From assembly GCA_038213895.1 (NCBI GenBank), contig JBBQSL010000005.1, positions 1 through 41,383 on the forward strand: a DNA stretch of 41,383 nucleotides, written 5' to 3'. The first letter of the stretch is position 1. Every line of letters begins with the position of its first letter. The DNA is from Kiritimatiellales bacterium. GTDB taxonomy: Bacteria > Verrucomicrobiota > Kiritimatiellia > Kiritimatiellales > Tichowtungiaceae. Under the pieces are notes generated by a model. The model saw nothing but the letters and a program-made list of their open reading frames with translations. It was not told the DNA's origin and did not search any database. Below are positions 2,268-40,685 of the stretch, piece after piece. The position numbers and the translations under genes were made by a program.

Positions 2268-3194
2268 ATGTACGTGCTCAACAGTCTAATGCCCGTTTTT
2301 CTAATCATTGCACTTGGAAAATTGCTTTGCCGAACCGGTTTTTTCTCCCCAAGCCTCATTAAAGGTCTTAACCAGCTCACGTACTGGGTCGCTCTGCCCG
2401 CCCTGCTCTTTGCCGAAATTTCCAGCGCAGTCTTTGATAGCGGCGAAGTCAACCGTATTACCCTGCTACTAATCAGCGCCACGTTGATTTCTTTTCTGCT
2501 CGGCTACCTCGCGGCACTACTGTTGCGTCTGCCGCATCGTGCACTCGGCGCATTTGTTCAAGGCTGCGGACGCGGTAATAACGCCTTTGTCGGCCTGCCG
2601 GTCATCCTTTACGCGATGAGCAGCATTTTCCCTAACGTTAAAACCATCGCTACCGTGGCTCTCGGCCCAGCTATTATTTTCTACAACATTTCTTCCATCA
2701 TCATTCTGTTGGCCCACGGCGAACGACAGCATAAAGGAGCCGCAGCAGTCGGTGTGTTCCTTAAGCAATTAGTACTGAATCCAATGATCCTTGCCTGCGT
2801 TGCTGGACTGCTAATCAACCGAGCCGGTATCACCCTTCCGCTGATCCTCTCACGAACCTTTGCATCGCTCGGGCAGGCGGCGCTACCGCTCGCTCTGCTG
2901 TGCATCGGCTCTTCACTCACGTTCGAAAAATCACCAGCCGCCATTGCACCGGCAATCATCGCCTCCGTCATTAAAGTTTTCATCCTGCCAGCAATCGGTT
3001 TTCTGCTCGGACACCTCTGGGGTCTCTCCGTTATGGAAATGAAAATTCTGCTCATCTACCTCGCCTGTCCAACCGCCACGGCCAGTTATGTCCTCGCCGA
3101 TATGTTCGGCAGTGACGCCCCGCTCGCCAGTCGTATCATCGTCATCAGCACGCTGCTTTCCGCAATTTCGCTTAGTATCGTTGTAGCTATGTAA
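2268..3194 (+). CDS. AEC-family (auxin efflux carrier-like) membrane transporter
   Basis: Polytopic membrane protein. The N-terminus '[17 protein letters not shown]' and the overall TM pattern are typical of AEC/MDR-type permeases. Start chosen at the ATG at 2268; the tabulated ORF begins at 2202. Confidence 0.6.
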
Positions 3195-3205
3195 AGGATT
3201 CACGT

Positions 3206-4390
3206 ATGATCCCAAAAAAACGCTTTGGAAAAACCGAATTACAAATGCCTGTACTCACCTGCGGCGGTATGCGCTACCAGCAGAGCTGGCAGGACGACGA
3301 GGCCGCCCGTCAATCTGTGACGGAGGAAAATCAAAAAAATCTCGAAGCCACCGTCCGCTACGCGCTCGACCTCGGCATCAATCACATCGAAACCGCCCGC
3401 GGCTACGGCACCTCGGAATTCCAGCTCGGAAAATTTCTGCCCTCACTTCCGCGCGACCAAATGATCGTCCAAACCAAGATTGGCCCGAAGGATACGCCCG
3501 CCGAGTTTCTGGAAACATTTGAAACATCCATGTCGGCCTTGAAGCTCGACTATGTTGACCTGCTCGCGATCCATGGGATTAACAACGAAGAAACCTTGCA
3601 ACAGGCTCTTAAAAGCATGCCTGCACTCGAACAGCTCAAAAAAGAAGGCCGCTGCCGTCACATCGGCTTCTCCACGCATGGCCCGGCACACACCGTTGTC
3701 AAAGCCATCGAAACGGGCCTCTTCGACTACGTCAACCTCCACTGGTACTTCGTGTACCACCCGACCAACCGCGCGCCGGTCGATGCCGCCGCCAAACTCG
3801 ACATGGGTGTCTTCATCATCAGTCCCGTCGATAAAGGCGGCAAACTCTACGAGCCGCCGCCCAAACTCATCGACCTTTGCCAGCCGCTCACCCCGATGGC
3901 CTTCAACGACCTCTACTGCCTGCGCGACCCGAAGGTTCATACGCTCTCCATCGGTGCCGCGCGTCCGTCGGATCTCGTCGAACACGTCGCCGCCGTCCAG
4001 AACATGGAAGAAAAATTTCCAACCCTTGGAAAAATCGAAGCCAAACTTTTCCAGGCCTTGGAAAAATCACTCGGTGCCGAGTGGGCGCACCGCTGGCACG
4101 AAGGGCTTCCGCGACAAGTTGACACGCCCGGCGAAATCAACATTCCGGAAATTTTGCGCCTCTGGATTTACGCCAAGGGACTAGACATGGTGGCGTTCGG
4201 TAAAATGCGCTACAATCTCATGGGCAATGCTGGACACTGGTTCCCGGGCCAAAACGCCGCCAACATCGATCAGGTTGATTTGACTGACGTCTTGAAAAAC
4301 AGCCCCTTCGCTCAGGAGATTCCCGCCATCCTGCGCGAGGCTCACCAGATGCTTTTCGACGAACCAAAAAAACGTCTCAGCGAGTCGTAA
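3206..4390 (+). CDS. aldo/keto reductase family oxidoreductase (long form, 394 aa)
   Basis: '[18 protein letters not shown]', a 'HGIN' motif and a TIM-barrel AKR pattern. An AAGGA ribosome-binding site lies 8 nt upstream. Confidence 0.7.
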
Positions 4391-4413
4391 GCGGCGGAAA
4401 CGGAATCAATTTA

Positions 4414-4454
4414 AGGCAGGCAGGATGCCTGCGATACGTACCGCGGGCTTCCAG
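4414..4454. repeat. dispersed copy related to the 33-bp tandem repeat (shared core CCTGCGATACGTACCGC)
   Basis: AAGGCAGGCAGGATGCCTGCGATACGTACCGCGGGCTTCCAG lies 24 nt after the AKR stop. The 17-nt core is identical to the one at 40650-40666. It is a hairpin-forming inverted repeat. Confidence 0.6.
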
Positions 4455-8906: not shown

Positions 8907-8955
8907 GGTAGGGACGGCTCGCCGAACCGTCCGCGACGCGTTCGGCGAACGCGCC
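8907..8955 (+). repeat. copy 1 (5' part only) of dispersed GC-rich palindromic repeat R
   Basis: GGTAGGGACGGCTCGCCGAACCGTCCGC lies 15 nt after the ppnP stop. It matches the 5' ends of the copies at 25827 and 35265 (reverse complement). Confidence 0.7.
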
Positions 8956-25765: not shown

Positions 25766-25826
25766 ACGCGTTGGTAGGGATCAGGAAACAGGAATCGTAC
25801 TAATTGCGTGTGAAATTCATCCGGGT

Positions 25827-26187
25827 GGTAGGGATGGTTCGCCGAGCCGTCCGCACGCACGCCAAGCCGACTGATATGAACTTAACTTAATTAGTATTTT
25901 TAACCACCCGCTTCGCTAGAGCCAATTTCGGAGTAAGGCGGAGAACCTCAGGCCATAAACAGAATAGATTTTTACCCACTGGGTACAGTTTATTCCAATC
26001 TTACTTTAACCCTCTGAACCCTCGGAGGTTCCTCTAGCAAAGCGGGTGGTATAAAATCTTTTCCGGACTACGATCAATACGAATCAAATTAATTCCGTAT
26101 GAGCAGGAGAGCCATTCCGCCGTGCGGCGCACCCAGCGGTCGCTCCCTACCCTTTGTTTTTTACCAAACATCATGCGTGATTGGTAT
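25827..26187 (+). repeat. copy 2 of dispersed repeat R (about 135 bp), interrupted by a 225-bp insertion
   Basis: 25827-25874 plus 26101-26187 align end-to-end with the reverse complement of 35132-35265. The intervening 25875-26099 is absent from that intact copy. Confidence 0.75.
25875..26099. mobile_element. MITE-like palindromic insertion (element A), nested inside repeat R
   Basis: Sub-terminal inverted repeats of 19 bp with one mismatch, ACCACCCGCTTCGCTAGAG / CTCTAGCAAAGCGGGTGGT. The termini are imperfect inverted repeats (18/25). The insertion sits exactly at ...CTGA|GCAGG... of repeat R. It may be flanked by a TGA direct repeat. Confidence 0.6.
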
Positions 26188-26288
26188 CGGGCTTCGGTTG
26201 TTTTTGAAAATGGAGCTTAAACGCGCTCGAAGATCGCGTTCCACCAAATCACCTTGGCAGAAAGCCAACTCTACTTCATATTTTGTCT

Positions 26289-26945
26289 ATGAATCTCGAC
26301 GTGCTTTATCACGACAACCATTTGCTGGCGGCGAATAAACCGGCGGGACTGCTGACGCAACCGAGCGGAACGGATAAGGATAATCTCGAAGATCGTTCCA
26401 AGGTTTGGATCAAGGAAACCAAGGGCAAGCCGGGCAATGTGTTTCTGCACGCCGTACACCGGCTTGATCAGGTGGTAAGCGGTATCGTGCTCTTCGCCTG
26501 CACCGATAAAGCACTTTCACGACTGAACGCCGACATGAGGGCGCACCGCTTTACCAAAATTTATCATGCTGTCGTTTCCGGTGTACCGCCGCAAAGCGAA
26601 GATTCACTGCGCCACTTCCTGATGCACGACGATTACCACGCCGAAGTTGCCAAAGAAGACGATCCCGATGCCCGCGAGTGTCTGCTCGACTACAAGGTAC
26701 TGAAGAAATCCGAAAATCAAACGCTGCTGGAAATCCAACTACACACCGGTCGCTATCACCAGATCCGCGCACAACTGGCGGCCATTAGCTGTCCGATTGT
26801 CGGCGACGAGAAATACGGCTCAAAAATAAAACTGCCCGGCGGCGCGATTGCCCTGCATCACGCGCGGCTGACGGTGATTCATCCGGTTAGCAAGGAAGAG
26901 ATCGTCGTAACAGCATCGTACCCAAAGCATTGGATCGAGGTATAA
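26289..26945 (+). CDS. RluA-family pseudouridine synthase
   Basis: The HRLD catalytic motif ('AVHRLDQVVSGIV') and 'TGRYHQIRAQLA'. The tabulated ORF opens with TTG at 26283; the first ATG is at 26289. Confidence 0.8.
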   Translation: MNLDVLYHDNHLLAANKPAGLLTQPSGTDKDNLEDRSKVWIKETKGKPGNVFLHAVHRLDQVVSGIVLFACTDKALSRLNADMRAHRFTKIYHAVVSGVPPQSEDSLRHFLMHDDYHAEVAKEDDPDARECLLDYKVLKKSENQTLLEIQLHTGRYHQIRAQLAAISCPIVGDEKYGSKIKLPGGAIALHHARLTVIHPVSKEEIVVTASYPKHWIEV

Positions 26946-28471: not shown

Positions 28472-29407
28472 TTATGCGCCTTCGGTACGGAGACGCGGAT
28501 CAAGCGCGTCGCGCAACGCATCGCCGAGCAAATTGAAGGCTAAAACTAATCCAAAAATGGCCAGCGTAACGAAGGTCATTTCCCACCAAACGCCCTGCCA
28601 GAGCCGCATGCGGGCACTATTGATCATAATACCCCACGACGGTTCGTTCTGGACACCGATACCAAGAAAACTCATGAAGACTTCCGTGCTCACGGCCGCC
28701 GGGAAACGTAGCGTAAAAGTTACGATTACGACGTGGAAGACGTTGGGAAGAATGTGACGGAAGAGAATCCGCGGCCAACTCAGCCCTAGCGCTTTCGCCG
28801 CCTGCACATAGGCCTGCTCCTTATGTTTGATCACTTCACCGCGAATCAGACGGCACAGTCCGACCCACGTGGTAAGTCCGATGCCGAGATAAATTCCCAT
28901 CAGCCCCTTTCCGACCACCATAGCAATGGCAAGAATGAAAAGCAGCCCCGGCATCGAAGCGACAGTAGAATAAAGCCAGACGACAAAGCTATCCACCCTG
29001 CCACCAAAATAGCCCGCCAGACAGCCGAAGAAAACGCCGATCGGAATAGCAATCAGCGCGGTGATGATACCAACCTTATAGGCAATGCGCGTCCCCTGAA
29101 TCAGACGCTGCATCACGTCACGACCCAACGCGTCAGTGCCCATCCAATGTTTGGAATATGGAGATTGATAGGCCTGATTCAGATCGGTCTTCTGATAAAA
29201 AGCAGTCTGATCTTTCGCCTTATAAACCTGATAAACCGCTTCGCCATAAACGGCCAGCGCGGTGTAAAAAACGACCACCCCGAGACAAACCATCGCGAGG
29301 CGGTTCTTTTTCAATCGCCGCCAAGCGTCGGACCAGAGCGAGATTCCTCGCTCCGGAGTTCTCGGCGGTCGGGGTTGGGGGTCAGTCCTTGAATTTTGAT
29401 ATTTCAT
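28472..29407 (-). CDS. peptide ABC transporter permease, OppC/DppC-like
   Basis: N-terminal 'SLWSDAWRRLKKNRLAMVCLGVVV' and the transporter motif region. Its ATG (29407-29405) and the first codons lie inside the left end of the adjacent transposon. Confidence 0.8.
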   Translation of the reverse strand: MKYQNSRTDPQPRPPRTPERGISLWSDAWRRLKKNRLAMVCLGVVVFYTALAVYGEAVYQVYKAKDQTAFYQKTDLNQAYQSPYSKHWMGTDALGRDVMQRLIQGTRIAYKVGIITALIAIPIGVFFGCLAGYFGGRVDSFVVWLYSTVASMPGLLFILAIAMVVGKGLMGIYLGIGLTTWVGLCRLIRGEVIKHKEQAYVQAAKALGLSWPRILFRHILPNVFHVVIVTFTLRFPAAVSTEVFMSFLGIGVQNEPSWGIMINSARMRLWQGVWWEMTFVTLAIFGLVLAFNLLGDALRDALDPRLRTEGA

Positions 29408-30456
29408 TCTTCATCTCCAACAAAGCACCCTCTGTCACCACTTCAACCTCGCGAACCGCTCTTGAAATCGTCGCCGCGTGACCCATATTTAACGCCTCGG
29501 AAATCCATTCGTTCTTTACGCTCGTATTCCGGCGAATAAGCCATGCGATAACCTTTTTCCGGTCATCGCCTTTTTTCAGCTTTTGCAACATCTCACGGTT
29601 AACTTTCAGGACGTCCAGACCGTTCCCAAGAAGTTTTTCAGCAGCCTGTTTATCATGTCGCGCAACGGCTCCGCCGCTGTGCGAATCCCGGCGTTTTCCC
29701 ATTGCAGCATTCTCCAGAGCACCGCGCACTTGTGAACAAAACTCTGCGGATCCGAAAATCCATCCCCTTCGGATCTGATCCCACATCTCATCCGCTTTCG
29801 CTGGGTTGTCGCTATGCAGAATGGCCAGGACTCTCTTCTGCATGGCCTTGCGATAGGCCGCTCTTCCGAGTGCTGTATCCTCAAAACTGCAACTCTTCAG
29901 AACCCGGTCCACCGTCAGCCAGCCGGGCCGCTCCGAAGGATAAAGATATCCCCGAAAACTGCTCCATTTGAAATCAGAAAGTGTGCCCTTCTCTAGATCA
30001 AAACAGTTCGCCCGCACCGGATTCAAATGAATATAACTGGATACAGTAGAAAAATACTCTCCACCATCTACCAAAAGGGCTTTATATCGGCCTTGGAAAA
30101 GATGACCCCAGACCTTATGCCGGGCATTAAAGCGCTGAGTATACGTCCCCTGAAGCCACCGCATACCATCCACGAGATTCGGTTCCGGTGTTTCCAGCAG
30201 AAGATGATAGTGATTACCCATCAGGACAAAGACGTGGACTCTCCATCCACATCGATTGCACGCATCCCCGAGAGTTTTAAGAAACATCTCGTGATCCTGC
30301 TGGTCTTTAAAAACCGGATCCTGACGGTTACCGCGGCACATCACATGATATACTGCCCCGGGGAATTGAACTCTTAACGGTCTTGGCATGAGAATCATGT
30401 AAACAAACTACAAAGGTAGCGTCAATCGAAAATATCAAAATTCAAGGACTGACCCC
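29378..30456. mobile_element. insertion element carrying a Y1 (IS200-like) + DnaA-HTH transposase, bounded by 27-bp perfect terminal inverted repeats
   Basis: 29378-29404 is GGGGTCAGTCCTTGAATTTTGATATTT. 30430-30456 is its exact reverse complement. A single gene lies inside. The right flank has a tandem 11-bp duplication GACCCCACTAA (30451-30472). Confidence 0.7.
29382..30398 (-). CDS. transposase: N-terminal Y1 HuH (IS200-like) domain + C-terminal DnaA-type helix-turn-helix
   Basis: 'VYHVMCRGNRQ' and HuH 'MGNHYHLLLE'. The C-terminus 'KVIAWLIRRNTSVKNEWISEALNMGHAATISRAVREV' is a DnaA-C-like HTH. The stop codon sits in the left inverted repeat. Confidence 0.75.
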   Translation of the reverse strand: MILMPRPLRVQFPGAVYHVMCRGNRQDPVFKDQQDHEMFLKTLGDACNRCGWRVHVFVLMGNHYHLLLETPEPNLVDGMRWLQGTYTQRFNARHKVWGHLFQGRYKALLVDGGEYFSTVSSYIHLNPVRANCFDLEKGTLSDFKWSSFRGYLYPSERPGWLTVDRVLKSCSFEDTALGRAAYRKAMQKRVLAILHSDNPAKADEMWDQIRRGWIFGSAEFCSQVRGALENAAMGKRRDSHSGGAVARHDKQAAEKLLGNGLDVLKVNREMLQKLKKGDDRKKVIAWLIRRNTSVKNEWISEALNMGHAATISRAVREVEVVTEGALLEMKNEISKFKD

Positions 30457-30473: not shown

Positions 30474-31787
30474 TCATTTCAATTTGACCCGTGGATCGAC
30501 TAGGGCGTAACAAATGTCGGTTAAGAGGTTGGCTATAACAAAGAGGATCGAGCCGACCAGCACGATAGCGCGAACGACGTCGACATCGGATGAGTTGATG
30601 GCGTTGATGCCGAGGTAGCCGAGACCTGGGATGCCGAAGAAGCTTTCCAGCAGCAGACTGCCGGTATAAAGAAACGGTATGGCGATAACGGTGTTGGTGA
30701 TGATCGGGATCATCGCGTTTTTCAGAACGTGTTTGAAAAGCACCCCGAGTCGACTGACGCCTTTGGCCTGAGCGGTGCGGACATAGTCACGGTGCGCCTC
30801 GTCGAGCATGATGGTACGGTAGAAGCGCAATTCAGCGCCAAGACCGCTGAATACGCCGATCAGTACCGGCAGTATTAAGTAACGTGGATCCTCAAATCCC
30901 CAGACTGGGAACCAACCCGCTTTGAAGGCGAGCAGATACTGTCCGGCAACAATCCAGACGAGATAGTTGACGCTCATCAGCGCAACCGAAAAGACGACGA
31001 AAAAGCGGTCCACCCAGGTATCGCGCCAGAAGGCACAAAAGAGCGAAAGCATGATGGCGGTTATCAGGCCCGCGAAGAAAATAGGCACAGCCAACATCAG
31101 TGACGGGCCGATGCCGTCGCTCAGCAGTTTGGAAACACGCTGATTCGTACTGCTCGAAACGCCAAAGTCGAGATGCGCCAACCGATTGAGGTAAAACATG
31201 AACTGCGAATCGAACGGATTATTCATCACGCGACGCAATTTAATGGCACGAATTTCCACTGGGGCAGTTCCCGGAATGATTTTCCCCACGGTTTGAAAGC
31301 GCAGACGGATTTTTTTCCAATCATTGGAAAGTTTAAGCTGATTTTCTCCAAACGTTGGAAATCCGCCAGCGCGTCCTTCGATTTCGAGTTCGTATTCACA
31401 ATCGGTGCGCAGAGCAAATTTAAGCGGAAACTCATATTCTCCGCCAGCAGCAAGAACGATCATACCATTAGTCCAGATGACGCCCGCCGCTCCCTGCCAG
31501 TCGCCTGCGGTACGTTCAAAGTCCGAGTCAGCATAGGCGCGAGTCCCAGTGCTGGAACCAACAAAAAGCGGTTTATTAAATCCTCGCTGTTCATCGAACT
31601 CTTCGAGGGCCTGCGGTGAAACATGCTGTCCGAGGACTTGCAACGCCGGACTGCCGCCGACGATATTAAATAGTACAAACGTAATCAGAATGACGCCGAA
31701 CACCGTCGGGATCATCTGCACTATTCGTTTGGTAATATAGCGAAGCATGAGCATCTGGAATGTTGGAATAGAGGAAGGATGGAACAT
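30474..31787 (-). CDS. peptide ABC transporter permease, OppB/DppB-like, with an enlarged periplasmic loop of about 130 aa
   Basis: Conserved permease core ('YVRTAQAKGVSRLGVLFKHVLKNA'). 437 aa against the usual roughly 310. Confidence 0.75.
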   Translation of the reverse strand: MFHPSSIPTFQMLMLRYITKRIVQMIPTVFGVILITFVLFNIVGGSPALQVLGQHVSPQALEEFDEQRGFNKPLFVGSSTGTRAYADSDFERTAGDWQGAAGVIWTNGMIVLAAGGEYEFPLKFALRTDCEYELEIEGRAGGFPTFGENQLKLSNDWKKIRLRFQTVGKIIPGTAPVEIRAIKLRRVMNNPFDSQFMFYLNRLAHLDFGVSSSTNQRVSKLLSDGIGPSLMLAVPIFFAGLITAIMLSLFCAFWRDTWVDRFFVVFSVALMSVNYLVWIVAGQYLLAFKAGWFPVWGFEDPRYLILPVLIGVFSGLGAELRFYRTIMLDEAHRDYVRTAQAKGVSRLGVLFKHVLKNAMIPIITNTVIAIPFLYTGSLLLESFFGIPGLGYLGINAINSSDVDVVRAIVLVGSILFVIANLLTDICYALVDPRVKLK

Positions 31788-35131: not shown

Positions 35132-35265
35132 ATACCCATCACGCATACTGTTCGGTAAAAAAACAAAGGGGAGTGAGCGACCGCCGGGCGCGCCGCACGG
35201 TGGAATGGCTCTCCTGCTCAGTCGACTTGGCGAGCGTGCGGACGGCTCGGCGAGCCGTCCCTACC
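35132..35265 (-). repeat. copy 3 (intact) of dispersed repeat R
   Basis: The reverse complement begins GGTAGGGACGGCTCGCCGAGCCGTCCGCACGC, a perfect 21-nt palindrome GGACGGCTCG-C-CGAGCCGTCC. It ends with a TATAAT-containing segment about 110 nt upstream of the tpiA ATG. Confidence 0.75.
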
Positions 35266-35278
35266 GACGGAATGACTA

Positions 35279-38535: not shown

Positions 38536-38542
38536 GCCCCTA

Positions 38543-38781
38543 GCCTATCTATTATACGCATAATAAAATCCGGGTAGATGTTGACCGCAAAGACGTGAAG
38601 AGAAGAAATAACGTTCCAACCATTGATAAAATGCTCCCGAATTTCTCCAATATCTGGAACCCTCAAACCAGTTTTCTACCCCTCTTCTTCGCGTCTTTAC
38701 GGTCAAAAAATTATCCAGTCTATGGATTAAATTAAACGACGGAGGGTCTATGGAATTAGGCGTATAATAGAATAGATAGGC
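38543..38781. repeat. MITE-like long imperfect palindrome (element B), about 240 bp, filling the trmJ / small-membrane-protein intergenic region
   Basis: Terminal inverted repeats GCCTATCTATTATACGC / GCGTATAATAGAATAGATAGGC. Internal arms TTGACCGCAAAGACGTGAAGAGAAG / CTTCTTCGCGTCTTTACGGTCAA. The tabulated ORF 38331-38666 inside it is probably spurious. Confidence 0.55.
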
Positions 38782-40511: not shown

Positions 40512-40565
40512 AAAGAGGAAGGTAGCAAACGGCTGAACAAATGGCAATCCGCAGGGTCTAATATA

Positions 40566-40685
40566 GACAAGGCAGGCTGGAAGCCCGCGGTACGTATAGA
40601 CAAGGCAGGCTGGAAGCCCGCGTTACGTATCGACAAGGCAGGCTGGAAGCCTGCGATACGTACCGCAGGCTTTCAGCCTGCCTTG
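40566..40685. repeat. three tandem copies of a 33-bp repeat (GACAAGGCAGGCTGGAAGCCCGCGGTACGTATA); the last copy extends into a 22-bp-stem hairpin
   Basis: Units lie at 40566-40598, 40599-40631 and 40632 onward. The third unit runs into CAAGGCAGGCTGGAAGCCTGCG-ATACGTA-CCGCAGGCTTTCAGCCTGCCTTG. The region lies in the divergent intergenic space between the S8 peptidase and the next gene. Confidence 0.8.

Follow-up and report, generated by a model that had tools for sequence, protein, structure and literature searches.

Insertion sequences (ISs) of the IS630 family, together with the Tc1/mariner elements and the Stowaway-like MITEs, are the closest described relatives of the element considered here. 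Such ISs have short terminal inverted repeats and use targets with T and A at the edges, and the classical target duplication of the IS630/Tc1/mariner group is TA. The MITEs derived from them are non-coding and have only their ends in common with the IS. Target duplications of 3 bp with the pattern TNA are classically attributed to other sources, namely the IS5-family IS1031/ISL2/IS427 elements and PIF/Harbinger, and both this duplication and small AT-rich ends are found in Tourist MITEs. The REP, BIME and REPIN sequences form a further class of intergenic, multi-copy repeats built on GC-rich palindromes with a GTAG head. ISs that target REP elements are known, for example IS1397. Correia, ERIC and RUP elements are intergenic palindromes of 100-350 bp that end in inverted repeats, duplicate a short target and would be transcribed into long hairpins; these families are confined to a genus or family. 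We know of no earlier description of a widely shared passenger module of bacterial MITEs.

The locus described here lies in a stretch of 41,383 nucleotides from contig JBBQSL010000005.1 of a Kiritimatiellales bacterium, referred to below as the window. The segment 25875-26099 is very probably a non-autonomous transposon (MITE) of an IS630-family clade without coding capacity; no ORF of at least 40 aa lies within its 225 bp. The non-autonomous mobile element suspected in a preliminary description of this DNA is thereby borne out by 11 distinct T-N-A-flanked relatives, IS630 elements with the same ends and empty orthologous loci. Like IS630-derived MITEs, the element has only its ends in common with the corresponding IS. 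Unlike classical IS630 elements, it has a 3-bp T-N-A duplication, and unlike a deleted IS it has a foreign conserved module as its interior. The difference from Correia, ERIC and RUP elements lies in the central 19-mer of this module, which is identical across several phyla and is common to MITEs with different transposition signatures. The window MITE is ordinary and of modest, limited significance by itself, and it records the activity of IS630-type MITEs and layered insertions in the poorly studied Kiritimatiellales. The conserved module is a lead deserving specialist attention. The coordinates of the features are collected in Table 1.

Table 1. Features of the split repeat R, its other copies and the inserted 225-bp element (positions in the window).
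Feature	Position	Strand	Description and basis
R left half, locus 2	25817-25874	+	86% match to 35218-35275; REP-like GTAGGGATGGTTCGCCGA motif at 25828-25845
Left TGA target-site duplication	25872-25874		sequence; single TGA in uninterrupted R; identical TNA flanks in 11 distinct relatives
Left terminal inverted repeat	25875-25898	+	TATGAACTTAACTTAATTAGTATT; deviates from the family consensus TACGRAAT at positions 3 and 7
Left arm of palindromic module	25903-25921	+	19-mer ACCACCCGCTTCGCTAGAG; same 19-mer in at least 114 genome stretches
Module interior	25922-26031		heptad-like CGGAG/CAGAG units; stem ATAAACAG.../...CAGTTTATT; small hairpin TACCCACTGGGTA; folds and alignment
Right arm of module	26032-26050	-	ACCACCCGCTTTGCTAGAG on the minus strand; single mismatch in the 3-nt centre of GC-NNN-GC
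Right sub-terminal arm	26051-26075		ATAAAATCTTTTCCGGACTACGATC; conserved in the MITE family (alignment)
Right terminal inverted repeat	26076-26099	-	TACGGAATTAATTTGATTCGTATT on the minus strand; fits the family consensus
Right TGA target-site duplication	26100-26102		sequence; identical TNA flanks in relatives
R right half, locus 2	26100-26195	+	strict match to 26162, weaker to about 26195
R uninterrupted copy (paralogous empty site)	35158-35275	-	single TGA at 35218-35220
R head, partial third copy	8907-8934	+	GGTAGGGACGGCTCGCCGAACCGTCCGC; window repeat search and motif matches

Repeat R is interrupted by exactly the 225 bp of the element, as found both by reading the sequence and by a repeat search over the window. 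In this search, the two parts of the split copy match the uninterrupted copy in inverted orientation, the left part at 86% and the right part (26100-26162 against 35158-35220) at 92%. The two matches overlap in the uninterrupted copy by exactly 3 nt, which read TCA, or TGA on the other strand. A TGA stands on each side of the insert, and uninterrupted R contains a single TGA; the empty site reads CGACTGAGCAGG and has no TA. The insertion point lies near the centre of R. The pairing of a filled and an empty site made in the preliminary description agrees with both R halves and with the 3-nt overlap, and the TGA direct repeat that it regarded as possible is present. Its two copies of R were also correctly placed, but R is longer than it had proposed, with similarity reaching rightward to about 26195.

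Repeat R itself is REP-like, with a GTAG-headed GC-rich palindrome (GTAGGGACGGCTCGCCGAGCCGTCCCTAC), and is intergenic and multi-copy. Copies or fragments occur three times in the window (25817-26195, 35132-35275 and 8907-8934) and once in a Pontiellaceae MAG (L027, 6103-6120). As single-stranded DNA, R folds no better than its shuffles (z = -1.2). The position of the MITE near the centre of R resembles that of ISs that target REP elements, and a relative in locus L005 lies in the loop of another hairpin repeat. The inserted element is, however, a DDE-type MITE and not an IS3-family IS.

The neighbouring genes allow the history of the locus to be outlined. The gene 3' of the element encodes an RluA-type pseudouridine synthase (26289-26945), and Kiritimatiellales genomes encode its closest homologues, with 86-89% identity. 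A Pontiella MAG has a counterpart of one window protein at 78% identity, with conserved neighbours. These matches place the window in Kiritimatiellales. Four related Kiritimatiellales contigs (L175-L178) have the same gene order as the window, namely methyltransferase, [DUF3465], VF530 and RluA. The VF530-RluA spacer measures 73-117 nt in these contigs versus 523 nt in the window, and both R and the insert are absent from the four shorter spacers. Because the related contigs have short spacers without either repeat, the history of the locus is stepwise: a short ancestral VF530-rluA spacer acquired the REP-like repeat R, the MITE later inserted at the TGA near the centre of R, and the left end decayed afterwards. 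A promoter-like stretch directly 5' of rluA is common to the related contigs, and the window has a promoter-like site at 26254-26282. An independent read assembly of the same rluA (L001 1-120, SRR19962010) stops within the right TGA, 2 bases beyond the MITE, as expected of an assembler at a repeat branch point.

The element contains two nested pairs of inverted repeats. Its termini both fit the 24-nt degenerate consensus TAYGRAMTTAAYTTRATTMGTATT (0.00 occurrences expected by chance) and are identical to each other at 18 of 26 positions, in line with the imperfect inverted-repeat termini noted earlier; of the first eight positions of the left end, two deviate from the consensus. The 19-bp inverted repeats with one mismatch that were reported earlier are found inside these termini and extend to 26 nt at 88% in the window repeat search. 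The 19-mer has two matches in the window, with 0.00 expected from shuffles. Its earlier designation as a sub-terminal repeat holds as regards its existence; it is, however, not a transposase-related end but a separate palindromic module, which also occurs without these ends in many phyla. The arms of the element are unequal, 49 nt on the right and 28 nt on the left, owing to ATAAAATCTTTTCCGGACTACGATC. Relatives have module interiors of 150-250 nt, and that of the window element is a shortened form of these (alignment with L138, L137, L122, L152, L127, L064 and L120). Both strands of the element fold far better than shuffles (z = -4.8 and -4.6). Scans of the window with the 19-mer and the end consensus gave no further copies of the element or module outside 25875-26099, and a covariance model run with filters off gave no diverged module copy there below E = 0.04.

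Relatives with the same ends define a MITE family. Local BLAST against fetched loci identified them in genomes (L064, 357 bp; L005/L120, 334 bp; L093; L004), and a metagenome scan with the end consensus added 45 further loci. The relatives sharing the termini are elements of 120-470 bp, and the end sequence that marks the family is TACGRAATYAAY. Pairing of ends yielded 15 candidate elements, 12 of which have identical 3-bp flanks. All of these flanks are T-N-A: TTA in six elements and TAA, TCA and TGA in two each, one TCA contig having been fetched twice, which leaves 11 distinct cases. A TNA also precedes almost every family end found. The element is present only once in the 41-kb window and in many copies in related genomes and metagenomes.

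Hairpin repeats have received layered insertions more than once. One Kiritimatiellota contig, L005 (= L120), carries two copies of the window's MITE family (2106-2439 and 2971-3210; region 2470-2760). One of them occupies a TAA in the loop of a different hairpin repeat (GGATGG...CCATCC), an empty version of which lies 400 nt away, and the other adjoins a separate copy of the module.

The ends of the element, TAYGRAMTTAAY..., match the terminal inverted repeats of IS630-family ISs of about 1.15 kb from metagenomes. By eye, the left end in the window and the right end of L156 are identical at 20 of 23 positions. Full-length elements with these ends are present in L156 (30-1178, 1149 bp), L166 (75-1219) and L147 (1877-5409), and in L161-L165 the same left ends lie beside a transposase gene. 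Two reading frames of L156 encode HTH_33/23/32/29 and DDE_3 domains (Pfam), as is typical of IS630 ISs. When the frames are joined by a -1 shift across a slippery A8 run, the product scores 197.9 bits against the IS630 family transposase model of NCBIfam (NF033545, cut-off 100 bits). A cognate transposase thus exists and, by these sequence matches, is of the IS630 family; it is found only in other metagenomic contigs, and no IS630 transposase gene lies within the window. The search for a cognate transposase sharing the repeat, which had been suggested earlier, consequently has a divided outcome: IS630-family ISs do share the termini of the element, but none is in the window, and the 19-bp repeat is not the shared end. 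The IS in L147 is itself split by a further element with a gene for a 735-aa protein on the opposite strand.

The flanks of these ISs are also T-N-A. They are TCA/TCA in L147 and differ in the middle base in the other two full-length ISs with both ends (TTA/TAA in L156 and TTA/TGA in L166). A homologue in Trichormus/Anabaena genomes, P0015, has a 46% identical transposase and the ends TACTGAATAGGG...CCAATTTAGTA, and its flanks are TTA/TTA in six copies and TGA/TGA in one. Because this distant cyanobacterial IS also duplicates TNA, the T-N-A duplication is a trait of a whole clade within IS630 as defined by NCBIfam and not a novelty of the window element. For the same reason, the TA duplication is not defining for the whole NCBIfam IS630 family. 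The IS630 assignment of the window element, whose 3-bp duplication departs from the classical TA, rests on the protein model and on the observed behaviour of the clade. Together with its relatives, the window MITE thus documents a whole IS630 clade that duplicates T-N-A rather than TA.

Based on the established knowledge of IS630/Tc1-mariner transposition, a cut-and-paste mechanism can be proposed. The terminal inverted repeats of about 24 bp are the predicted binding sites of a DDE transposase, which would be supplied in trans by the full-length IS of about 1.15 kb, with its two frames, -1 frameshift and ends TACGAAATTAAC... The transposase would excise the element and insert it at T-N-A with a 3-nt stagger, and gap repair would then duplicate the trinucleotide, here TGA. 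The window MITE would have been mobilised in trans in this manner. It is now probably an immobile relic, because its left end has decayed, being off the consensus at two of the first eight positions, and because the window holds a single copy and no IS630 gene. The centre of the MITE does not appear to be derived from the IS; it would be a passenger module, composed of TTTC ACCACCCGCTTCGCTAGAG and CACRGAG heptads followed by their mirror image.

Several other accounts of the insertion have to be considered. A Tourist-like MITE moved by a transposase of the IS5 family (IS1031/ISL2/IS427 group) or of the PIF/Harbinger type would fit the 3-bp T-N-A duplication. However, the ends match elements whose transposase is of the IS630 family by both the NCBIfam model and the DDE_3 domain, a second, cyanobacterial IS630-family IS also shows TNA duplications, and no IS5-type gene with these ends was seen, so this already disfavoured origin is highly improbable. 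A classical TA duplication was rejected for the window element, since the empty site in R has no TA. Palindromic elements derived from IS200/IS605 (PATEs) have neither terminal inverted repeats nor a target duplication, and the window element has both. It is also formally possible that the 225 bp were originally part of R and that the copy at 35158-35275 has lost them by deletion. Such a deletion would need the exact removal of an element bounded by inverted repeats together with one copy of a 3-bp direct repeat. Moreover, the same element occurs elsewhere in unrelated flanks with its own TNA duplication each time, no element is associated with the partial third R copy or the R-like Pontiellaceae copy, and the orthologous loci, with their short spacers, contain neither R nor the insert. 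For practical purposes, the deletion origin is refuted.

The palindromic module within the MITE has a much wider distribution than the MITE family. A scan of one genome per species for ACCACCCGCTTYGCTAGAG gave at least 114 stretches, where only a handful would be expected by chance according to our estimate. The matches listed come from Kiritimatiellota (including the isolate Pontiella sulfatireligans F21), Verrucomicrobiota, Lentisphaerota, Chthonomonadaceae, several Deltaproteobacteria (including two closed chromosomes), Chlamydiota, Phycisphaerales, Alphaproteobacteria, Cloacimonadota and others. MAG labels can err, and this taxonomic pattern rests on many bins per phylum and many independent assemblies. 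The larger consensus is TTTC ACCACCCGCTTCGCTAGAG RCACRGAG-NCACRGAG. In the symmetric form, the 19-mer is present on both arms with an interior of 27-330 nt. In the asymmetric form, the 3' side has only CCTCTGTGGTGAA, and CCGCTTCGCT there makes a 10-nt bulge, which could fold into a GC-NNN-GC mini-hairpin. When arms were chosen by the MITE ends and not by the 19-mer, 9 of 15 were exact, and about half of the substitutions fell in the three central bases of GC-NNN-GC. The 19-mer had no match in viral contigs, the module arm had only a chance 20-nt match in a plasmid collection, and literature searches on the 19-mer, the heptads and IS630 with TNA gave nothing relevant. A full-length element with module arms as its ends was also sought, and the sole distant inverted pair (L057) encloses ordinary genes. 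The arms are not always inverted: in the Bin_57_9 MAG they are found in direct tandem orientation, with distances of 63 and 104 nt between copies (L009 6952-7034 and L080 5350-5473).

The context of the module differs between lineages. In Chthonomonadaceae, Chlamydiota and several Verrucomicrobiota genomes, it is a free-standing dispersed repeat, whose copies share no flanking similarity beyond about 5 nt from the palindrome. No target duplication was found beside these free-standing modules, whose flanks are TTY/RAA extensions of the palindrome. In Kiritimatiellales, the module lies inside IS630-type MITEs with T-N-A duplications, that is, the family of the window. The MITEs that contain it in Pontiella have the classical IS630 signature, with [TA]GTAC...GTRC[TA] boundaries within CTAG. 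A deltaproteobacterial MAG carries it in a MITE whose ends are GGTATTGTCAAAA and whose 8-bp target duplications are perfect, reading TGTTGCTC in L056 and TCTGGATT in L083. The module is consequently carried by MITEs with three target duplications (TNA, TA and 8 bp), and because duplication length is a property of the transposase family, at least two unrelated MITE families carry it, with duplications of 2-3 bp on the one hand and 8 bp on the other. The interior of the MITE with the 8-bp duplication (L056, L068, L074, L076, L083 and L113), about 150 nt long and rich in hairpins, recurs in a Syntrophorhabdales MAG; both sides of at least one of its stems are changed, GTCCAGAACAG...CTGTTCCGGAC versus ATCCGGAACAG...CTGTTCTGGAT.

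The gene settings of the modules, among the matches listed and with crude ORF calls, are 26 convergent, 41 tandem and 8 divergent (roughly p = 0.01 against 1:2:1). The modules are mostly located 3' of genes, and some abut the stop codons of both neighbours. Free-standing modules in L092, L084, L052, L108, L039 and others often abut T-N-A trinucleotides resembling the stop codons of convergent flanking genes, and there the module appears to fill the whole intergenic space. All-versus-all ORF clustering at the 114 listed loci gave no gene family recurring beside the modules; the clustered neighbours belong to common families only (ABC transporters, kinases, dehydrogenases and pseudopilins). No transposase, REP-associated tyrosine transposase (RAYT) or IS630 gene is associated with the 114 listed modules.

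Two further readings concern the nature of the palindrome itself. The segment could primarily be a gene for a structured non-coding RNA, either a 6S-type long hairpin or a new class, with the flanking repeats being incidental, as the preliminary description had allowed. The folding of both strands is compatible with such a gene, and so are the strong conservation of the 19-mer in end-selected copies, with its variation mainly in the GC-NNN-GC centre, and the minus-strand fold, which is more stable in seven of eight window-family elements and has more G-U pairs. This strand bias is nevertheless weak. An arm alignment built without preference for a strand gives an excess of only 73 versus 51 wobble-type mismatches, from eight sequences that are not independent, and 28 asymmetric modules show no strand preference (15 versus 13). 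An Rfam covariance-model scan, which had been recommended as a check, matched no family in the window or in 18 related loci, whether thresholds were gathering or permissive, the best permissive E-value being 3.8 for an unrelated viral pseudoknot. The element also contains no promoter-like site. The RNAalifold prediction for eight family members is a long composite hairpin, most pairs of which are simply conserved; in 17 short modules, 82% of cells pair under the proposed fold versus 41-59% when slid, but covariation does not exceed that of shuffles. The hairpin is real as a sequence palindrome, with no covariation signal for a selected RNA fold, and the terminal inverted repeats, the target duplication and the matching IS explain the element without an RNA. 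A primary RNA gene is therefore quite unlikely. Alternatively, the central palindrome could be of the REP/REPIN type and spread by a RAYT, with the outer IS630-type ends being secondary. Free-standing modules do resemble REPINs in being palindromic, in having no target duplication and flanks unrelated within about 5 nt, and in lying mainly at the 3' ends of genes. A Y1 transposase (PF01797, 2.9e-13) is also encoded in the window, and of the NCBIfam models it matches a RAYT model best, at 56.6 bits and below the 80-bit cut-off. On the other hand, the module has no GTAG head, a single arm forms no hairpin by itself, and the 27-bp inverted repeat around the RAYT-like gene of the window is unrelated to the module. 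Within 8 kb of the 114 listed modules there is a single RAYT-like gene, at a distance of 5 kb, and, as noted above, no gene family recurs next to them. The TGA duplication and the IS630-type ends point to DDE transposition for the whole window element. Spread by a RAYT is unlikely.

The module is most economically read as a selfish palindrome of the REP/MITE kind that has spread successfully and, being a strong hairpin, repeatedly became the core of MITEs. A functional role is suggested because the 19-mer is near-invariant across phyla and its variation is confined to the mini-loop. The module (TTTC ACCACCCGCTTCGCTAGAG and CACRGAG heptads, closed by the mirror image or by CCTCTGTGGTGAA) may tentatively be regarded as a functional nucleic-acid element, kept near-invariant across at least six phyla for a conserved factor of the host or of mobile elements and spreading both alone and as MITE cargo, and we consider this possible but doubtful. 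It could take the form of a protein-binding DNA hairpin or cruciform, or of an RNA hairpin with a conserved GC-NNN-GC side loop, and with the same reserve it could bind a conserved factor or act on mRNA 3' ends. If functional, it would represent a rare conserved cargo common to unrelated bacterial MITEs and a handle for its trans-acting partner. If functionless, it would still be an unusually successful cross-phylum selfish palindrome.

The window contains other repeats and a further transposase gene. The Y1 transposase is an IS200-like protein of 338 aa encoded on the minus strand (29382-30398). Its unit (29378-30456) is bracketed by a perfect 27-bp inverted repeat, GGGGTCAGTCCTTGAATTTTGATATTT, lies between two ABC-transporter permease genes (28472-29407 and 30474-31787) and looks inserted. 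A candidate second MITE of about 242 bp occupies 38539-38780; it has an internal palindrome and, at its edges, 26-nt inverted repeats (CCTAGCCTATCTATTATACGCATAAT, 81%). At 40562-40685, a 33-nt unit, TATAGACAAGGCAGGCTGGAAGCCCGCGGTACG, stands three times in tandem and then once in inverted orientation; each unit contains a small hairpin, GGCAGGCTGGAAGCCTGCC, and a related single copy is located 36 kb away at 4406-4454. Finally, the palindrome TTTCCAA-N3-TTGGAAA recurs intergenically (4011-4068, 7209, 18818, 19275, 31312, 35932, 37963 and others), corresponds to repeat families D2 and D5 and inverted pairs I19 and I20 of the window repeat search, and may be a regulator binding site.
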